Shown here one piece after another: positions 1,693 to 25,633 of a DNA stretch of 64,000 nucleotides (within the stretch, counting starts at the first letter, position 1; every line of letters starts with the position of its first letter). A program made the position numbers and the translations under genes. The notes beneath the pieces are model-generated. The model saw only the letters and a list, made by a program, of their open reading frames with translations, did no database searches and was not told the DNA's origin. The stretch lies in NCBI RefSeq assembly GCF_056746865.1, contig NZ_CM163382.1; one strand, given 5' to 3'.

Positions 1693-1708
1693 TGGCACGC
1701 AATCTGCA
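1693..1708 (+). promoter_or_regulatory. sigma54 promoter (-24/-12) for norVW
   Basis: TGGCAC-gcaat-CTGCA about 48 bp upstream of the norV ATG. Confidence 0.7.
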
Positions 1709-4402: not shown

Positions 4403-6643
4403 CTATGCAGCATGCAGGATGCGCGCCGCAGCAATAACCCCCTGCCCCAGAGACAAGCCGCCATCACCCGCCGGTAAACTCTGCGGAAAGAGTAATGTGA
4501 AATCAGCGAGATAATGCGCCAGGCGTGTACGCAGCAATCGGTTATGAGTAACCCCACCGCTAAATACCAGCGTAGTGATACCGCGCATCGTGGCCTGCTC
4601 ACGCATCAACGCGGCAAAACCCTGCGCCAGCGCATCATGAAACGCCCACGCGCGTTGATTAACCGGTGCCTGCCAGTTCAGCCACTGCTGCCAGAAAGTG
4701 ACGAGATCCAGTTGATTGTCCACCTGCGGCATCGTCACCGGATGCGTCACTCCGTCGCATGAGGCTGCGAGCGCCTCCAGAGCACAAGCCGCTTCACCTT
4801 CATAACTTAACGTGGCTGGCGCACAGCCCAGTGCCGCCGCCACAGCATCGAACAAACGTCCACACGATGACGCCAGCGGCGCGTTAATTCCACGCTCAAT
4901 GGCCCGCGCCAGCACGCTCCAGTTTTGCTGTTGCACACTTGCCGTTTCAGGGTAATTCTGCCACTCCGGCACAAAGCGCAGGCACTGCGCCAGCAGGTTA
5001 CGCCACGGCTGCTTTGCAGCCAAATCGCCCCCCGGAAGCGCCACCGCAGGCAAGCCGCCCAGGTGCTCACATTCGCGATAGTTCACCCGCAGGCATTCGC
5101 CGCCCCATAAAGCGCCGTTCTCCCCCATACCGATACCGTCGAGCGTCAACGCAATGACATCACCGCCATCCAGTGGCCAGTGATGTTCTGCCAGACACGC
5201 CGCCGCATGAGCATGATGATGCAGCACCGTTTGTGTCGGCAGATTCATTTCGCGCGCCCACTGGCTGGAGACATAGCCCGGGTGCGCGTCATGCACAACG
5301 TATTGCGGGGTGAAATCGTAGATGTTTTGCATCAGGCGTAACGCTTCGCGCCACTGCATCTGGATGCCATCGTCACTTAAATCGCCCAGATGCTGACTCA
5401 ACACCGCTTGTTCGCCGCGCACCAGGCAGAAGGTGTTTTTCAGATCCGCACCGAGACACAGCACAGGCGGAACATTTTTAAAGCCCGGAGGCAAAGCCAG
5501 CGCATCCGGCACATACCCCCGCGAACGGCGCAGCATTTCGCCGCTTTCGCGCACCACCGAATCATCCATCCGCTGCACGATGTCGCGGTTATGTAGCAAG
5601 AATCCGTCGGCAATGCCCTGCAAATCCGCCAGCGCCTGTTCGTTGCTGATAGCCGGTGGTTTACCGCTCAGGTTGCCGGAGGTCATCACCAGCGGACATT
5701 GCAGTTCCTGTAACAGCAAATGCTGAAGCGGGTTCGCAGGCAACATTACCCCGACTTCGTTAAGGCCAGGGGCGATATCATCACAAAGCTCAGGTACGTA
5801 TTTTTTATCCACCAGCACAATCGGCGCGGCGGGCGTGGTAAGCAACTGGCGCGCAGCGTCTGGTAAACCTTCTGCCACTGGCAACATGACCGCCAGCGGT
5901 TTCGCCGGGCGATGTTTGCGCGCCCGAAGTGTCGCCACCGCGTTACTGTTACACGCATCGCAGGCGAGATGAAATCCGCCAATCCCTTTGATGGCGACAA
6001 TGTTGCCCATTTTTAACTGTGCGATAGCCGCCTGTAATGCCGCCTCTTGTTCTGCATGTTCACCATGACTTACCCATTCAAGATGTGGGCCACACTCCGG
6101 GCAGGCCACCGGCTGGGCGTGGAAGCGACGATCGAGCGGGTCGCGATATTCTTTGTCACAGGCCGGACACAGCGGAAACGCCGCCATCACGGTAAACGGG
6201 CGGTCGTAAGGCATCGCGCGAATAATGGTGAAACGTGGGCCGCAGTGGGTACAGTTGATAAACGGATAACGATAACGCCGCTCGCCCGGGGTATTCATTT
6301 CGGCAAGACAGGCAGGGCAAGTAGCGGCATCGGGAACAATTTGCGTATTCATGGTGCCGCCTGTGCTCTGGCGTATAGTGAACTCGGTGGGCAGTTGTGA
6401 CCAGATAAACGGCTCACGCTCGACGCTATCAATACGCGCCAGCGGCGGGCAGTGCTGATGCAACTGCACAAGAAACGTTTCCGGGTCTTCCAGCAGCCGG
6501 ACTTCCACTCCATCGCCGTCATTACAGACATCGCCGTGAAGATTTAATTGCTGTGCCAGCTGCCAGACAAACGGACGAAAACCGACGCCCTGCACTTTGC
6601 CACGAATACGCAGTTGGACACCGCAAGATGTGTTTTTTGCCAT
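4403..6643 (-). CDS. hypF: [NiFe]-hydrogenase maturation carbamoyltransferase HypF
   Basis: long ORF (open to 6715); start taken at [25 protein letters not shown]; acylphosphatase N-terminus and zinc-finger CxxC pairs. Confidence 0.9.
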
Positions 6644-6795: not shown

Positions 6796-7323
6796 TTAGA
6801 ACATCAGCGCCGTACGGCGACGTTTTTCTGCACTCAGTTGTTCAAGTTTATTACGATCGACACAAATCAGCGCATGGGTCGGGCAAGCCGCCATACACGC
6901 CGGGCCGTCTTCACGATGGTTACAGAGGTCGCATTTATTGGCTTCGGCTTTGTCAGCCCGTACATTCAGCCCCGCGCCGCTGTTGCGAATCACCGGACGT
7001 ACCACCACTTCCATCGCGCCATACGGGCAAGCCACAACGCAGGTTTTGCAACCAATGCAACGTTCCTGCATCACATGAACAAACCCTTTATCACGGCTGA
7101 TAGCACCATTCGGGCAGACGTTAGCGCACGGTGCATCTTCACACTGACGGCAAACTGTCGCCGTGGAAATGTTCACACCTTTAATGACATGGATACGCGG
7201 TAAAAATGTTTCCGGGGTCAGCGATGCACAGTCCTGATTTTCCTGATGAGAAACCACGCACGCCACTTCACAGGTACGGCAACCAATACATTTACTCGCG
7301 TCAGCAATGATGAAACGGTTCAT
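6796..7323 (-). CDS. hydN: 4Fe-4S ferredoxin-type electron transport protein HydN
   Basis: 175 aa from [22 protein letters not shown]; multiple CxxCxxCxxxCP clusters. Confidence 0.9.
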
Positions 7324-7471
7324 CAAATTCTCCAGCAATGACAGTTAATGCGCCGATACATTCACAAATCATGCCAGTTTTTAATACACTGTTATTTAAG
7401 GAAATTAATTTCTGTAATGCAGGAAAAACGATGTCATCGACACTAGTGACGATGACATGTGATGACAATGT

Positions 7472-8482
7472 TTATCGCGAAAGAGCAATGAGGGAGCCGC
7501 GGCGGATCAGTTTTCCGCTGAAGGTTTTCGGCGGTGAGAAATCCCCGCCATCGAGCATAAAAATCAGCCGTCCAATAATTTCCTGAATCATCTCAGTCAC
7601 CGGAATTTTTACGCTGGAGAGCGCCGGAACGGTGTAGGGGGCAATTGCGATATCATCGAATCCGATAACTGACACCTGCTCTGGCACCGCTACGCCGCGC
7701 TCGTGCAACGCTTTCATCGCACCTATCGCCATATCGTCGTTACTGGCAACTAACGCGCTAAATTTAGCCCCACGTTCGAGCAACGTTTCTACCCCTTCGG
7801 CCCCGCTGGCGGGCGTCCATTTACCGATAGCGATAAGTTTTTCATTGAGCGCAATACCATGCTGCGACAGCGCGTCTTTATACCCGGCAAGACGTTCAAT
7901 GCTGGTGGGGGAATCCATCGAGCCGGTAAGGAAAGCAATCTCCTGATGTCCGGCGTTTATCAACTCTGCCACGGCGTTAAAGCTGGTCTGTTTATGATCG
8001 CACCAGACGCTATGGCTGCTATTTTTGCGCAGGCGGCGATTAAGCACCATTATCGGCTGACTGTGTGCGTCAATGATGTCATCAATCTCATCCACGCTTA
8101 AAAAACGCGGGTAAATCATAATGGCGTCGCAGCGCAAATCCAGCAGATACTGAATCGCCTGGCGCTCTTCTTCGGCGCTGTGTTTACCATCTGCCAATAG
8201 CAACTGTCGCCCTTTCTCTTCCGCCATTCGCGCGGCATGAAAGAGTAATTCACTAAAATAAATGCCGTGGTAAAGTGTGTTGGTCACTACCAGCCCCAGC
8301 GTCTGAGTACTCTTCGCCGACAGATTGCGCGCCAGCAAGTTTGGACGGTAACCGCTCTCTTCTACCGCCTGAAACACGCGATCTTTAGTCTCCTGGCTGA
8401 CGTAGCCATTACCTGAAAGCACGCGGGAAACGGTCGCTTTTGAAACCCCGGCGCGCTTCGCCACTTCCAGCATCGTCGTCAT
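7472..8482 (-). CDS. ascG: LacI-family repressor of the asc operon
   Basis: 336 aa from MTTMLEVAKRAGVSKATVSRVLSG (HTH) plus periplasmic-binding-like effector domain; divergent from ascFB. Confidence 0.85.
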   Translation of the reverse strand: MTTMLEVAKRAGVSKATVSRVLSGNGYVSQETKDRVFQAVEESGYRPNLLARNLSAKSTQTLGLVVTNTLYHGIYFSELLFHAARMAEEKGRQLLLADGKHSAEEERQAIQYLLDLRCDAIMIYPRFLSVDEIDDIIDAHSQPIMVLNRRLRKNSSHSVWCDHKQTSFNAVAELINAGHQEIAFLTGSMDSPTSIERLAGYKDALSQHGIALNEKLIAIGKWTPASGAEGVETLLERGAKFSALVASNDDMAIGAMKALHERGVAVPEQVSVIGFDDIAIAPYTVPALSSVKIPVTEMIQEIIGRLIFMLDGGDFSPPKTFSGKLIRRGSLIALSR

Positions 8483-12260: not shown

Positions 12261-12663
12261 GCAATCTCCTCACCATCAAATAGATGGCGTTTTCCTGATG
12301 AATATCATGCAGCATACTTAACAGCATTGTACTCCATTCTTTCTGCTGCGAAGTTTGCGTTGCCCGGGCTTTATCGAATGCGTTGGCCAGCATCGGCACA
12401 TGGTTAATGTCGATGACGATCTCACCATATTTCGGCACGCCTTCCATTTTGCGGCGGGCTTCGCTGCCCGCCTCCAGAGTGGCAATCCATGCCAGATATT
12501 CATCCCACGGGCAGGTGAGCGCCGCTTCCAGGCAATCGATAACCCCAAGGTGGTGACCAATCGCCAGGCTGTAATAGACCACCTGCTGCGCCTCGGCGGG
12601 CGTGGCATCGTTCTCATCAATAAATTTACGGCTCAGTTGACTGAACACCACCTTTTCACTCAT
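12253..12663 (-). CDS. hycH: formate hydrogenlyase maturation protein
   Basis: 136-aa ORF overlapping hycI and hycG. Confidence 0.9.
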
Positions 12664-13978: not shown

Positions 13979-15688
13979 TTATTTCAGCGGCGAGTTTTTA
14001 CGCTCAATGCTGTAACGCTCGAGTTCTTTGTACGGCACCACTTTGCTCTTCTTCTTACGTACATCGACCACGGTCATGCGGTCGGTACAGGAGTAGCAAG
14101 GGTCCAGGCTACCGATAATCAGCGGCGCATCGGAAACAGTGTTGCCACGCAGCATGTAGCGCAGGGTCGGCCAGTTCGCGTAGGTCGCGGCACGGCAGCG
14201 CCAGCGGTACAGCTTCTGGTTGTCGCCGGTCATGCTCCAGTGGATATCGTCGCCGCGCGGCGCTTCGGCAAAGCCCAGCGCAAAACGGTGCGGAATATAG
14301 GTAAAGCCTTCCACCATCAGCGGACCGCCCGGCAGGTTATCCAGACCGTAGTCGATCATGTTCAGCGCGGTATAGACTTCGTTGATACGAACTTTCAGAC
14401 GGGAAATAACGTCGCAGCCCTGCTCGCTGTGGACTTCCATTGGCAGCAGGCCATAACCAACAAACGGGTGATCGGCGCGGGTATCGCGAGCGTGTCCGCT
14501 GGCGCGGACCATCGGGCCAACGTTACTGAAGTCGCGGGCAATTTCCGGGTCCAGACGACCAATGCCGACGGTGCGCTGTTCCATGTTCGGTGTGCTCAGC
14601 AGCACATCCACCAGCTCCTGCACTTCACGACGCATCTGTTGTGCCAGCTGGCGGGTCTGGATCATGTCGTCTTTCAGCAGATCGCGACGAATCCCGCCGA
14701 TCAGGTTCAGGCCGTAGGTTTTACGTGCACCGGTAAGGATCTCTGCCATTTTCATGGAGGTTTCACGCACGCGGAAGAACTGCATAAAGCCGGAGTCGAA
14801 GCCGGTAAAGTGACAGGCGAGGCCGAGGTTGAGCAGATGCGAGTGCAGGCGTTCTACCTCCAGCAGAATGGCGCGGATCATCTGCGCACGTTCTGGTACC
14901 TGAATACCCATCGCGTTTTCCACCGACGTGGTGTAGGCGGTGCTGTGAGCAAAGCCGCAGATCCCGCACACACGGTCAGAGAGGAAGGTCACTTCGTTGT
15001 AACCCATGCGGGTTTCCGCCAGTTTTTCCATGCCGCGATGGACATAGAACAGGCGGTAGTCGGCGTCGATAATGTTTTCGCCATCGACGAACAGACGGAA
15101 GTGGCCCGGTTCGTCAGAAGTGACGTGCAGCGGACCAATCGGAACGACGTTGTTTTTCTTGTCGCCCAGTTCGTTGATGAACTCGTAGGTTTCAGCATCG
15201 GTAGTCGGTGCCGGACGTTGACGATAATCCATGCTGTCTTTACGCAGCGGATAAAGTTCATCCGGCCAGTCATCCGGCAGCACCAGACGACGTTCATCCG
15301 GCAGCCCTACCGGAATCAAACCGTACATATCGCGCACTTCACGCTCGCCCCATACCGCCGCCGGAACGCGCGGCGTTACGGACGGATATTCCTGTTTGTT
15401 GGCGTCAACTTCAACGCGCACGGTTATCCAGCATTTGGTGCCCTTCTCCATCGACAGCACGTAATAAACGGCGTAATGACCATTCAGTTTGCGTTCGTCG
15501 TTACCAAACAGCACCGACAGCCAGCCACCCTGCTTGTAATAGAGAAACTCCACTACTTCCGGCAGATAGTTCACCTTTACGGTGACAGTCAGCTGATCTT
15601 TGGTCTGCCAGGCGTGGTCCAGCACGACGCCCGGAAATGCCTCATTCAGCGCGGCGAGATAATGTTGACCTAATTTTTCTTCAGACAT
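13979..15688 (-). CDS. hycE: hydrogenase 3 large subunit
   Basis: 569 aa from MSEEKLGQHY; NuoCD-like; C-terminal DPCYSCTDR Ni-binding motif. Confidence 0.9.
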   Translation of the reverse strand: MSEEKLGQHYLAALNEAFPGVVLDHAWQTKDQLTVTVKVNYLPEVVEFLYYKQGGWLSVLFGNDERKLNGHYAVYYVLSMEKGTKCWITVRVEVDANKQEYPSVTPRVPAAVWGEREVRDMYGLIPVGLPDERRLVLPDDWPDELYPLRKDSMDYRQRPAPTTDAETYEFINELGDKKNNVVPIGPLHVTSDEPGHFRLFVDGENIIDADYRLFYVHRGMEKLAETRMGYNEVTFLSDRVCGICGFAHSTAYTTSVENAMGIQVPERAQMIRAILLEVERLHSHLLNLGLACHFTGFDSGFMQFFRVRETSMKMAEILTGARKTYGLNLIGGIRRDLLKDDMIQTRQLAQQMRREVQELVDVLLSTPNMEQRTVGIGRLDPEIARDFSNVGPMVRASGHARDTRADHPFVGYGLLPMEVHSEQGCDVISRLKVRINEVYTALNMIDYGLDNLPGGPLMVEGFTYIPHRFALGFAEAPRGDDIHWSMTGDNQKLYRWRCRAATYANWPTLRYMLRGNTVSDAPLIIGSLDPCYSCTDRMTVVDVRKKKSKVVPYKELERYSIERKNSPLK

Positions 15689-15705
15689 GCTCAAACTCTC
15701 TTTAA

Positions 15706-16629
15706 TCACGCCGCCAGCAAGGAGACGAACGCTAAAAATGCAAAGCCAAACCCAGCCCAGGTAATGCGCGGAGTAATATCAAGACGCAGACGGGCCATGC
15801 TGTTTTCGAACAGCGCGATAACCAGGACGCCAACCACCAGTTTGACGATGGCAATCACCAGCGCCAGCAGCAACCCACCGACGGTGAAGGTTTCCATTTG
15901 TCCCCACGGAATAAACACCCCGACGAACATCTGCAACACCACCAGCTGTTTCAGGCTGATACCCCATTTCATGACGCCAAAGCCGCTGCCGCTATACTCA
16001 GAGAGCGGACCTTCCTGCAACTCCTGCTCGGCTTCCGCCAGGTCGAACGGCAGTTTGCCCATTTCGATAAAGGTGGCGAATGCACAGGCACAAAGCGCCA
16101 GCACCAGCGGGATGCTCTGGCTCAGCGGCCAGTGATAAACGGTGTCGGTGATGTTGCTGATGTTGGTGGAACCGGCAACCTGCGCCGCAACCCACAGACC
16201 AAGCAGCAGCATCGGTTCGACCAGCACGCCAAGCATCGCTTCACGGCTCGCGCCGATAGCGGTAAACGGGCTACCGGTATCCAGACCAGAAATGGCAAAG
16301 AAGAAACGCGCGATGGCAAAGAGATACAGTAAGGTGATCAAATCGCCCAGCTGCGGCAGCGGAGAACCAACGGTCACCACCGGCAGCGCAGTAGCGATAG
16401 TCAGCATGACGCCCACCATCACATACGGCGTCAGGCGGAACACCCAGCCGGAGGCATCCGGGCCAACGCTCTGGCGGCCCAGCAGTTTGATAATGTCGCG
16501 ATACTCCTGCAACACGCCCGGCCCGCGACGGTTATGCAAGCGGGCGCGCGCCACGCGGGTTATACCGGAGAGCAGCGGCGCAACGGCAAATAACACCAGC
16601 GCCTGAATTAACGGATATAAAACACTCAT
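15706..16629 (-). CDS. hycD: formate hydrogenlyase membrane subunit (NuoH-like)
   Basis: 307-aa hydrophobic ORF. Confidence 0.9.
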   Translation of the reverse strand: MSVLYPLIQALVLFAVAPLLSGITRVARARLHNRRGPGVLQEYRDIIKLLGRQSVGPDASGWVFRLTPYVMVGVMLTIATALPVVTVGSPLPQLGDLITLLYLFAIARFFFAISGLDTGSPFTAIGASREAMLGVLVEPMLLLGLWVAAQVAGSTNISNITDTVYHWPLSQSIPLVLALCACAFATFIEMGKLPFDLAEAEQELQEGPLSEYSGSGFGVMKWGISLKQLVVLQMFVGVFIPWGQMETFTVGGLLLALVIAIVKLVVGVLVIALFENSMARLRLDITPRITWAGFGFAFLAFVSLLAA

Positions 16630-18458: not shown

Positions 18459-19066
18459 TTAGCCTCTCCACTTTGAGCCTGCTGAAACAAGGTGAGATCG
18501 CCAAAGTCCGTGTTAAAGGTCAGCTCACGCTTACGTTTGCTAACGCGGGCGATATCGGTGTTATCCACCAGATGCAGGGCTTTAGTAGGGCACATCCGCA
18601 CGCAGGCCGGACCTTGTTCATCAAAACTACAAAGGTCACATTTGACGGCGATCGCGCGAATACCTGGCACCCAGTCAAGCAATGTGCTGACACGCGCCGG
18701 AGCAGGCGGTGCCGGTGGCGCTTTCGGGGTATTGGCGTTTGCCGGAATATCCAGCGGACGGCTGCCGGAAAATTCAATTGCGCCAAACGGGCAGGCGATG
18801 CCGCACAGTTTGCAGCTTACGCACAGACTTTCATTCAACTGCACGGCCCCATCAACGCGGGTGATGGCGTTAACCGGGCAGACCACCGCACAAGGCGCAT
18901 CTTCACAGTGGTGACAGAGCTGCGGCGCAGATTCTTTTTCATTGAGCATCACTCGCAGGCGCGGCATTGATTGCAGGCCGTGCTGGCGATGCGTCTCTGA
19001 ACAGGCGGCCTCACAGGTGTGGCAGCCGATACAGAGCGTGGAGTCAGCAATTACAAAACGATTCAC
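18455..19066 (-). CDS. hycB: formate hydrogenlyase 4Fe-4S subunit
   Basis: 203-aa ORF with four ferredoxin Cys clusters (CIGCHTCEAAC). Confidence 0.9.
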   Translation of the reverse strand: MNRFVIADSTLCIGCHTCEAACSETHRQHGLQSMPRLRVMLNEKESAPQLCHHCEDAPCAVVCPVNAITRVDGAVQLNESLCVSCKLCGIACPFGAIEFSGSRPLDIPANANTPKAPPAPPAPARVSTLLDWVPGIRAIAVKCDLCSFDEQGPACVRMCPTKALHLVDNTDIARVSKRKRELTFNTDFGDLTLFQQAQSGEAK

Positions 19067-19190
19067 CAGGCATTCCTCAGGTGATTGTCATTTTTGACGA
19101 AAACATGCCGATGAAATGTCATTTTCGACACTCATCGACACGCCCATCCCCAAACAGGCGTAACGCCTGCAAAACGGGCAAAGCCTCAGC

Positions 19191-19652
19191 TCATGCTGCC
19201 GGGCTTTGTCCCTTTACCAGTTGGCTTAAATTCACCGGCACATTGTTTTCAATGGCGGTGTATAAGCTGTCGTAAACGCCAGCGATTTTTTCGAGATAGT
19301 GTTCCAGAACCTGTTCGCGATCGCGGATGTTGACCTTGCCATCAATCATGCCGTCAATGCTCAGTTGCGCCTGCGCAATCCGCTGTTTGTCTTCGCCATC
19401 TTTTGTTTCGACGTAATACTCGATGGTGTGGCTGTTAAAGCCATCCGCCAGGGTGACGTAAATGCGAAAATGTTCAAAAAGGACGAAACAGAGTTCTTTG
19501 TCCGGCGCGCAGCTCATGGCGTGATGCAGGCGCGCTTTCGATAACGTGATCCCCTGAACCAGCGAATTGCAGTAGATGTGCCACTGGTCCTGTAGGCGAC
19601 GATGCCGCTGTGCGATGTAATCGGCTTTCTCGCTTATTTCCCAAATAGTCAT
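19191..19652 (-). CDS. hycA: formate hydrogenlyase regulatory protein
   Basis: 153-aa ORF, first gene of the hyc operon, divergent from hypA. Confidence 0.9.
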   Translation of the reverse strand: MTIWEISEKADYIAQRHRRLQDQWHIYCNSLVQGITLSKARLHHAMSCAPDKELCFVLFEHFRIYVTLADGFNSHTIEYYVETKDGEDKQRIAQAQLSIDGMIDGKVNIRDREQVLEHYLEKIAGVYDSLYTAIENNVPVNLSQLVKGQSPAA

Positions 19653-19704: not shown

Positions 19705-19751
19705 ACTTTTAATTCATTGTTATGAAACAGATTTTTAAGATAAAGATGAAT

Positions 19752-19793
19752 TTCGTCGCCGTGTCGACGTGTCATTTCGACATCATCGACATT
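19752..19793. promoter_or_regulatory. FhlA upstream activating sequence (repeated GTCGACA / TCGACAT half-sites)
   Basis: gtgtcgacgtgtcatttcgacatcatcgacatt between divergent sigma54 promoters. Confidence 0.5.
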
Positions 19794-23554: not shown

Positions 23555-25633
23555 ATGTCATATACACCGATGAGTGATCTCGGACAACAAGGTTTGTTCG
23601 ACATCACTCGGACACTATTGCAGCAGCCCGATCTGGCCTCGCTGTGTGAGGCTCTTTCGCTACTGGTAAAGCGTTCTGCGCTCGCCGACAACGCGGCTAT
23701 TGTGTTGTGGCAAGCGCAGACTCAACGTGCGTCTTATTACGCGTCGCGTGAAAAAGACACCCCCATTAAATATGAAGACGAAACTGTTCTGGCACACGGT
23801 CCGGTACGCAGCATTTTGTCGCGCCCTGATACGCTGCATTGCAGTTACGAAGAATTTTGTGAAACCTGGCCGCAGCTGGCCGCAGGTGGGCTATACCCAA
23901 AATTTGGTCACTATTGCCTGATGCCACTGGCGGCAGAAGGGCATATTTTTGGTGGCTGTGAATTTATTCGTTATGACGATCGCCCCTGGAGCGAAAAAGA
24001 GTTCAATCGTCTGCAAACATTTACGCAGATCGTTTCTGTCGTCACCGAACAAATCCAGAGTCGAGTCGTTAACAATGTTGACTATGAGTTGTTATGCCGG
24101 GAACGCGATAACTTCCGCATCCTGGTCGCCATCACCAACGCGGTGCTTTCCCGCCTGGATATGGACGAACTGGTCAGCGAAGTCGCCAAAGAAATCCATT
24201 ACTATTTCGACATTGACGATATCAGCATTGTCTTACGCAGCCACCGTAAAAACAAACTCAACATCTACTCCACTCACTATCTTGATAAACAACATCCCGC
24301 CCACGAACAGAGCGAAGTCGATGAAGCCGGAACCCTCACCGAACGCGTGTTCAAAAGCAAAGAGATGCTGCTGATTAATCTCCACGAGCGGGACGATTTA
24401 GCCCCCTATGAACGCATGTTGTTCGACACCTGGGGCAACCAGATTCAAACCTTGTGCCTGTTACCGCTGATGTCTGGCGATACCATGCTGGGCGTGCTGA
24501 AACTGGCGCAATGCGAAGAGAAAGTGTTTACCACTACCAATTTGAATTTACTGCGCCAGATTGCCGAACGTGTGGCAATCGCTGTCGATAACGCCCTCGC
24601 CTATCAGGAAATCCATCGTCTGAAAGAACGGCTGGTTGATGAAAACCTCGCCCTGACCGAGCAGCTCAACAATGTTGATAGTGAATTTGGCGAGATTATT
24701 GGCCGCAGCGAAGCCATGTACAGCGTACTTAAACAAGTTGAAATGGTGGCGCAAAGTGACAGTACTGTTCTGATCCTCGGTGAAACTGGTACAGGTAAAG
24801 AGCTGATTGCCCGCGCGATCCATAATCTCAGTGGGCGTAATAATCGCCGCATGGTCAAAATGAACTGCGCGGCGATGCCTGCCGGATTGCTGGAGAGCGA
24901 TCTGTTTGGTCATGAGCGTGGGGCTTTTACCGGTGCCAGCGCCCAGCGTATCGGTCGTTTTGAACTGGCGGATAAAAGCTCCCTGTTCCTCGACGAAGTG
25001 GGCGATATGCCACTGGAGTTACAGCCGAAGTTGCTGCGTGTATTACAGGAACAGGAGTTTGAACGTCTCGGCAGCAACAAAATCATTCAGACGGACGTGC
25101 GTCTAATCGCCGCAACTAACCGCGATCTGAAAAAAATGGTCGCCGACCGAGAGTTCCGTAGCGATCTCTATTACCGCCTGAACGTATTCCCGATCCACCT
25201 GCCGCCACTACGCGAGCGTCCGGAAGATATTCCGCTGCTGGCGAAAGCCTTTACCTTCAAAATTGCCCGTCGTCTGGGGCGTAATATCGACAGCATTCCT
25301 GCCGAGACGCTGCGCACCTTGAGCAACATGGAGTGGCCGGGTAACGTACGCGAACTGGAAAACGTCATTGAGCGCGCAGTATTGCTGACACGCGGCAACG
25401 TGCTGCAGCTGTCATTGCCAGATATTGTTTTACCGGAACCAGAAACGCCGCCTGCCGCAACAGTTGTCGCTCAGGAGGGCGAAGATGAATATCAGTTGAT
25501 TGTTCGCGTGCTGAAAGAAACTAACGGCGTGGTTGCCGGGCCTAAAGGCGCTGCGCAACGTCTGGGGCTGAAACGCACGACCCTGCTGTCACGGATGAAG
25601 CGGCTTGGAATTGATAAATCGGCATTGATTTAA
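23555..25633 (+). CDS. fhlA: formate hydrogenlyase transcriptional activator FhlA
   Basis: 692 aa from MSYTPMSDLG; sigma54-activator AAA+ motifs GETGTGKE and GAFTGA; C-terminal HTH. Confidence 0.9.
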   Translation: MSYTPMSDLGQQGLFDITRTLLQQPDLASLCEALSLLVKRSALADNAAIVLWQAQTQRASYYASREKDTPIKYEDETVLAHGPVRSILSRPDTLHCSYEEFCETWPQLAAGGLYPKFGHYCLMPLAAEGHIFGGCEFIRYDDRPWSEKEFNRLQTFTQIVSVVTEQIQSRVVNNVDYELLCRERDNFRILVAITNAVLSRLDMDELVSEVAKEIHYYFDIDDISIVLRSHRKNKLNIYSTHYLDKQHPAHEQSEVDEAGTLTERVFKSKEMLLINLHERDDLAPYERMLFDTWGNQIQTLCLLPLMSGDTMLGVLKLAQCEEKVFTTTNLNLLRQIAERVAIAVDNALAYQEIHRLKERLVDENLALTEQLNNVDSEFGEIIGRSEAMYSVLKQVEMVAQSDSTVLILGETGTGKELIARAIHNLSGRNNRRMVKMNCAAMPAGLLESDLFGHERGAFTGASAQRIGRFELADKSSLFLDEVGDMPLELQPKLLRVLQEQEFERLGSNKIIQTDVRLIAATNRDLKKMVADREFRSDLYYRLNVFPIHLPPLRERPEDIPLLAKAFTFKIARRLGRNIDSIPAETLRTLSNMEWPGNVRELENVIERAVLLTRGNVLQLSLPDIVLPEPETPPAATVVAQEGEDEYQLIVRVLKETNGVVAGPKGAAQRLGLKRTTLLSRMKRLGIDKSALI

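Follow-up and report, generated by a model that had tools for sequence, protein, structure and literature searches.

A conserved palindrome in the hydN-ascG spacer of Escherichia coli as the probable FhlA enhancer of the sigma-54-dependent hydN-hypF promoter

The palindromic element at positions 7431–7467, upstream of hydN, is very likely to be the enhancer (UAS) of the sigma-54-dependent hydN-hypF promoter and to be bound by FhlA. Positions refer throughout to the window, the whole 64,000-nucleotide stretch of DNA that was analysed, which corresponds to the hypF-hydN-ascGFB-hyc-hyp-fhlA region of E. coli. A 2 kb stretch around the motif matches E. coli chromosomes at 100% identity and occurs as a single copy in 5425 of 5426 complete genomes, and the K-12 MG1655 sequence over 7431–7470 is identical to that of the window. 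The motif lies in the 148 bp spacer between hydN and ascG, 4 nt past the ascG stop codon and 108–147 nt 5′ of the hydN start codon. The initial annotation had proposed FhlA control of hydN-hypF on the basis of two strings in this spacer, which are indeed present at 7432–7443 (tgtcatcgacac) and 7451–7467 (gatgacatgtgatgaca). The proposal is supported by the position of a sigma-54 promoter, the CGTCA-N4-TG(A/T)CG core of the fdhF UAS, a 9-mer shared with the hyc and hyp sites, conservation across 80 species and the published literature. The coordinates of the relevant features are collected in Table 1.

Table 1. Features of the hydN upstream region and related features elsewhere in the window
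Feature	Position	Strand	Basis
Sigma-54 promoter of hydN, TGGCATGATTTGTGAA	7361–7376	−	PWM, 11.1 bits; ChIP-seq motif identity; conserved in 81 of 81 sequences (80 fetched loci and the window)
IHF-like box, TAACAGTGTATTA, two mismatches to WATCAANNNNTTR, approximately −44 to −32	7382–7394	−	Consensus match; conserved offset
T5 run located 2 nt beyond the palindrome; CGTTTTTCC when read along hydN/ascG	7424–7428	−	Possible intrinsic terminator with the hairpin
Near-perfect 28 bp palindrome, ATGTCATCGACACT/AGTGACGATGACAT, proposed FhlA UAS core	7431–7458	.	Inverted repeat, 13 of 14 pairs, no spacer
Third upstream half-site; GATGACA on the + strand, which reads TGTCATC towards hydN	7461–7467	−	Consensus GTCGTCAnnTGTCATCGTCA..., 1.0–1.7 bits per position
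hydN CDS, Fe-S electron transport protein, first gene of the operon	6796–7323	−	RefSeq; NCBIfam NF007658, 383 bits
hypF, second operon gene, [NiFe] hydrogenase maturation carbamoyltransferase	4403–6643	−	RefSeq
ascG, LacI/GalR-family repressor; stop codon 4 nt from the outer half-site	7472–8482	−	RefSeq; family scan
hycA-hycB spacer, second FhlA-type UAS, TGTCATTTTTGACG ... TGTCATTTTCGACACTCATCGACAC	19086–19141	.	FhlA matrix hits, rank 1 and rank 5/10
hycA-hypA intergenic UAS, −74 to −115 from the inferred hyc start	19752–19793	.	FhlA matrix hit TGTCGATGATGTCG at 19778–19791, rank 2
fhlA, sigma-54-dependent formate-responsive activator	23555–25633	+	NCBIfam NF011958 equivalog, 1545 bits, ORF residues 13–704

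The hydN promoter was located with a matrix derived from 186 sigma-54 promoters (PMC7658346, Table 2). The initial annotation had reported no convincing −24/−12 element downstream of the motif; this was incorrect, as TGGCAT-N5-GTGA is present on the minus strand (7376→7361) and points towards hydN. It is the sole hit in the spacer and ranks 20th of approximately 128,000 positions, with a score of 11.1 of a maximum of 21.4 bits. Compared with the GG-N10-GC motif (TGGCAC-N5-TTGC), the element is only partly canonical, with GG at 7375–7374 (−25/−24) and GA at −13/−12 (TGA rather than TGC). The TGA at −12 accounts for the moderate score, and this atypical −12 is probably also why the promoter was overlooked previously. 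The −12 region carries TGCA in other genera. With the second G of the GG (7374) taken as −24, transcription would start near 7350 and give a leader of 27 nt. A sigma-70 scan returned one weak promoter-like site on the + strand (7361–7390), which is below shuffle expectation.

Published data place sigma-54 at this promoter. The 17-mer CTGGCATGATTTGTGAA (7377→7361) is the exact motif under the sigma-54 ChIP-seq peak that Bonocora 2015 (PMC4591121) attributed to hydN in E. coli, in which study the site is classed as previously confirmed and lies 27 nt from the gene. The orthologous TGGCACGATTCGTGTA of Salmonella is bound by sigma-54, and expression of Salmonella hydN-hypF is 13-fold rpoN-dependent, with FhlA as the listed bEBP (PMC3844500). 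Genomic SELEX has also detected binding of the RpoN holoenzyme in the hydN-ascG spacer (PMC8743547). The same matrix also gives high scores elsewhere in the window. The element TGGCACGCAATCTGCA at 1693–1708 (+ strand; 16.3 bits, rank 2) matches the published norV sigma-54 promoter motif, OS25 (Bonocora 2015, PMC4591121), which shows that the norR-norVW region also falls within the window. A strong sigma-54-like sequence, TGGCACATCTACTGCA (15.0 bits, window rank 5), is located at 19568–19583 on the minus strand within hycA (19191–19652), in the orientation of hyc, and may belong to the intragenic sigma-54 sites that have been described genome-wide.

The IHF-like box lies between the enhancer and the promoter. 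The best match to WATCAANNNNTTR is found at the same offset, with 0–2 mismatches, in 52 loci, 13 of which match perfectly. A near-identical block, ATAACAATGAATTAAAAGTTGGCAC, precedes the hyc promoter, such that the hydN (7380–7396, minus strand) and hyc (19705–19723, minus strand) promoters have in common a proximal ATAACA(A/G)TG(A/T)ATTAAAA-N2-TGGCA segment that contains the WATCAANNNNTTR-like box. From this sequence match, IHF would be expected to bind the −44 to −32 box of hydN. Between the box and the enhancer is an A+T-rich palindrome, TTAAGGAAATT/AATTTCTGTAA (7396–7417), which is moderately conserved in other genera as an A/T-rich stretch and may simply be bendable spacer DNA.

The 28 bp palindrome reads ATGTCATCGTCACTAGTGTCGATGACAT in the direction of hydN and spans −81 to −108 relative to the inferred start, with its centre at approximately −94.5; the third half-site follows at −111 to −117. 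The half-site spacing of the hydN element is TGTCA-TCGTCA-N4-TGACGA-TGACA, and GATGACA (7461–7467) is the counterpart of a moderately conserved TCGTCA/TCGACA unit found 5′ of the palindrome in other genera. No other 28 bp palindrome with at least 13 of 14 pairs occurs in the 64 kb window, and none was obtained in 30 dinucleotide-preserving shuffles. Readings of the palindrome as a CRP-, FNR- or LacI-type operator were considered by eye and rejected, as the second half-site is missing in each case. An Rfam scan of 7200–7600 matched no RNA family.

Conservation was assessed with 80 hydN loci from Enterobacteriaceae and relatives, one genome per species, the upstream regions of which were aligned on the −24/−12 element (n = 81 with the window). 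The sequence GTCATCGTCA-N4-TGACGATGAC is exact in 52 of the 81 sequences and has at most one mismatch in 74. The information content is approximately 2 bits per position in both arms, compared with approximately 0.1 bit over the 15 nt that adjoin them towards the promoter. In five divergent E. coli strains, polymorphisms are almost all located outside the palindrome and the promoter. The distance to the promoter falls into two classes with no intermediates: the palindrome is centred at −94.5 ± 2 in 49 fetched loci, and likewise in the window, and at −84.5 ± 2 in 31. The first class includes Escherichia, Salmonella, Citrobacter and Kluyvera and the second includes the Klebsiella oxytoca group, Enterobacter, Lelliottia and Trabulsiella, while Raoultella species fall in both. 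The classes differ by about 10 bp, approximately one turn of the helix, as expected of an enhancer that must face its promoter across a DNA loop.

Retention of the palindrome does not depend on ascG. In most genera ascG is the 5′ neighbour of hydN, and the palindrome is kept where hycI or another gene takes this place (Salmonella L009 and L011, Cedecea L056 and L065, the Pantoea MAG L053, E. albertii L006, E. whittamii L002 and the E. coli strain L1PEag1). As regards the neighbourhood itself, ascG is not the 5′ neighbour at L002, L006, L008, L009, L011, L025, L030, L051, L053, L056, L065 and L086. In Salmonella, Cedecea and some others, the hyc operon ends with hycI directly next to hydN, and E. 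whittamii and some Escherichia retain only a remnant of the 3′ end of ascG. Such remnants suggest that the asc genes either were an insertion into the hyc-hydN interval or have been deleted from it.

Comparison with known FhlA sites reveals both shared units and a different arrangement. The likeness to the hycA-hypA half-sites that was claimed in the initial annotation holds for TCGACAT, which occurs there twice (19777–19783 and 19786–19792); the other quoted half-site, GTCGACA, is in fact GTCGACG (19763–19769). The 9-mer TCATCGACA is present in five copies in the window, compared with 0.64 expected, and three of these are located upstream of hydN (7434–7442), in the hycA-hycB spacer (19132–19140) and in the hycA-hypA spacer (19783–19791). 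The site in the hycA-hycB spacer is presumably the hyp UAS, an assignment attributed to Schlensog 1994 and Leonhartsberger 2000. The hyc/hyp UASs and the hydN element have in common TCATCGACA(C/T) and TGTCAT...CGACA units, and the distance of the hyc UAS from its own sigma-54 promoter (−74 to −115; −83 to −107) is similar to that of hydN. However, the hyc/hyp sites consist of TGTC-N5/6-GACA or direct TGTCG repeats, an arrangement that differs from that of hydN, and form two separated sites, whereas hydN has one compact palindrome.

The core of the hydN element is shared with the fdhF UAS. In MG1655 this UAS, GTCACGTCAAAACTGACGACAG, is centred at −104.5 from the TGGCATAAAAGATGCA promoter, compared with −94.5 for hydN, so that each element sits approximately 100 bp ahead of a sigma-54 promoter of the TGGCAT type. 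The fdhF core, CGTCA-N4-TGACG (CGTCAAAACTGACG), is the hydN core in most genera; in E. coli hydN it is CGTCACTAGTGTCG, with one arm TGTCG. Both elements have flanking GTCA/GACA units, although the outer half-sites of hydN are 1–2 bp farther out than those of fdhF (GTCATCGTCA compared with GTCACGTCA). The central 4 nt are CTAG-like in hydN and A-rich in fdhF, and the hydN palindrome (28 bp) is longer and more symmetric.

A motif scan with FhlA and sigma-54 matrices, as suggested in the initial annotation, yielded the sigma-54 hit at 7376→7361 and a weak FhlA hit on the centre of the palindrome. With the published 14 nt FhlA matrix (PMC7658346), the best match in the hydN region scores 7.1 bits (rank 187) and coincides exactly with the palindrome centre (7438–7451), whereas the hyc/hyp UASs score 12–17 bits; weak hits of this matrix are numerous throughout the window. 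Taken alone, the weak matrix hit at hydN argues neither for nor against an FhlA site. When hydN 14-mers were checked for column compatibility with the 13 source sites of the matrix, many unrelated 14-mers proved to be compatible as well. The matrix, described as palindromic, is really a TGWC-N5-TGWC direct repeat (PMC7658346, Table 2). The consensus CATTTCGTACGAAATG of Leonhartsberger 2000, in the form quoted in Table 1 of PMC4987338, has at least seven mismatches in the hydN region and 5–7 at the accepted UASs. As so quoted, it is poor even at accepted E. coli UASs and is therefore not discriminating and unusable as a test. The published matrix and this consensus, as quoted, thus describe FhlA sites poorly.

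An nhmmer profile of 61 distinct orthologous hydN palindromes was searched against 68.5 kb and recovered its own site with E = 1e-11, in an alignment (7467–7432) that includes the third half-site. There were 18 non-self hits with E < 10, and known UASs account for four of them (one in fdhF, two in hycA-hycB and one in hycA-hypA); these four are individually non-significant (E = 0.8–7). The known UASs total approximately 175 bp of the 68.5 kb, so only about 0.05 hits would be expected there, compared with the four observed. The best non-self hit (E = 0.12) is TCGTCAGAAGTGACG at 15111–15125 within hycE (13979–15709, minus strand), which is also the only exact CGTCA-N4-TGACG in the window (approximately 0.06 expected). 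Weaker hits are found in hycH (12405–12417) and hycB (18635–18647). Judged by sequence, the hycE, hycH and hycB hits could be due to chance or codon bias, or could mark FhlA-type sites internal to the hyc operon.

The hydN element thus lies where a UAS is to be expected, as the sigma-54 promoter of its transcription unit is located approximately 80–120 bp downstream, and it is conserved alongside the regulated gene and its sigma-54 promoter. The hydN-hypF operon is reported to be enhanced by formate and FhlA and to belong to the formate regulon (review, PMC11841067), and FhlA is listed as its bEBP (PMC3844500; PMC4987338). A search of the literature for genome-wide FhlA ChIP-exo, ChIP-seq or gSELEX data found none, nor were FhlA ChIP, SELEX or footprint data at hydN found in the literature searched, the reach of which did not extend to the primary papers Maier 1996 and Leonhartsberger 2000. 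The exact bases that FhlA contacts are predicted to be 7431–7467. We propose that formate-activated FhlA, encoded approximately 16 kb away in the window, would bind GTCA/TGAC half-sites as an oligomer, with two half-sites in each arm of the 28 bp palindrome and one more upstream. The sigma-54 holoenzyme would wait as a closed complex at TGGCAT-N5-GTGA, an IHF-type bend at approximately −40 would bring FhlA to it, and ATP hydrolysis by FhlA would then open the complex, with transcription beginning near 7350. This architecture, with an enhancer approximately 80–120 bp upstream, an IHF-like bend site, a −24/−12 element and a distance constrained by helical phase, is shared with nifH/NifA and glnHp2/NtrC. 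Compared with the generic sigma-54 layout, the IHF-like box of hydN is unusually near the promoter (approximately −44 to −32) and the −12 of E. coli is noncanonical (GA instead of GC).

The palindrome might alternatively be the operator of a regulator other than FhlA, such as its paralogue HyfR, AscG or an unknown factor, which we consider to be unlikely. The weak score with the published FhlA matrix and a half-site spacing unlike the TGTC-N5/6-GACA of hyc/hyp would be in keeping with such a regulator, and a link to HyfR is conceivable given that HydN has been reported as a component of FHL-2 in Trabulsiella (PMC11841067). HyfR is, however, a close paralogue that might share the site, and this would extend control by FhlA rather than replace it. 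An AscG operator is at odds with retention of the palindrome in taxa without an adjacent ascG, and the palindrome does not resemble LacI/GalR-type operators. Moreover, its core is that of the fdhF UAS, a classic FhlA target (with one arm TGTCG in E. coli hydN), and FhlA is the activator named for hydN-hypF in published work (PMC3844500, PMC4987338, PMC11841067).

It is very unlikely that the main role of the palindrome is to form the hairpin of an intrinsic terminator for ascG transcription (or, in Salmonella, for that of the hyc operon) and so to protect hydN from read-through, with its likeness to FhlA sites being incidental. The location is suitable, in that the element begins just after the ascG stop codon and on the same strand, and as RNA the palindrome is predicted to form a 9 bp stem (centroid −13.7 kcal/mol, z = −1.9) that is followed by CGUUUUUCC; T-runs after the palindrome are also found in Salmonella, where the upstream gene is hycI. 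However, a run of at least four T residues is present in just 17 of the 81 sequences and is lacking in the other 64, while the sequence of the palindrome itself is nearly invariant. What is conserved is base sequence and not pairing ability, although a terminator would allow compensatory changes, and a terminator has no need of a spacing to the sigma-54 promoter that is conserved in helical phase. Only four of the nine stem pairs are G-C, and a simple terminator scan made no call at the palindrome. The G+C-rich hairpin directly before a U-tract, with conserved structure, that characterizes a rho-independent terminator is therefore not what is seen here, and termination cannot be the conserved function of the palindrome. 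A secondary, lineage-specific role as a terminator in Escherichia and Salmonella is a tentative possibility. More doubtful is a fully dual-purpose module in these two genera, which as DNA would be the FhlA enhancer of hydN-hypF and as RNA would provide the hairpin and U-run that end the ascG or hyc transcript. Such a module, with a layout of five half-sites that the published matrix fails to describe, would also imply a revised model of FhlA binding, with (T/C)GTCA units at 6–8 bp steps and a higher oligomer.

Finally, although short TGTC/GACA half-sites are common and weak matrix hits occur window-wide, a functionless chance likeness of short GTCA/TGAC-rich strings is effectively refuted by the uniqueness of the palindrome in the window and its absence from the shuffles, and by its near-invariance in 80 species between flanks of approximately 0.1 bit.

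That hydN-hypF belongs to the FhlA/sigma-54 formate regulon was known before, and as this regulatory relationship is long established, the identification of an FhlA enhancer upstream of hydN is correct but not new. The additions are modest: placement of the likely FhlA site at 7431–7467, its strong and phase-constrained conservation, the conserved IHF-like box, and the finding that the published FhlA matrix and consensus under-describe the hydN site. A genuine enhancer was thus recoverable from raw sequence, and the accepted picture of the formate regulon is unchanged.
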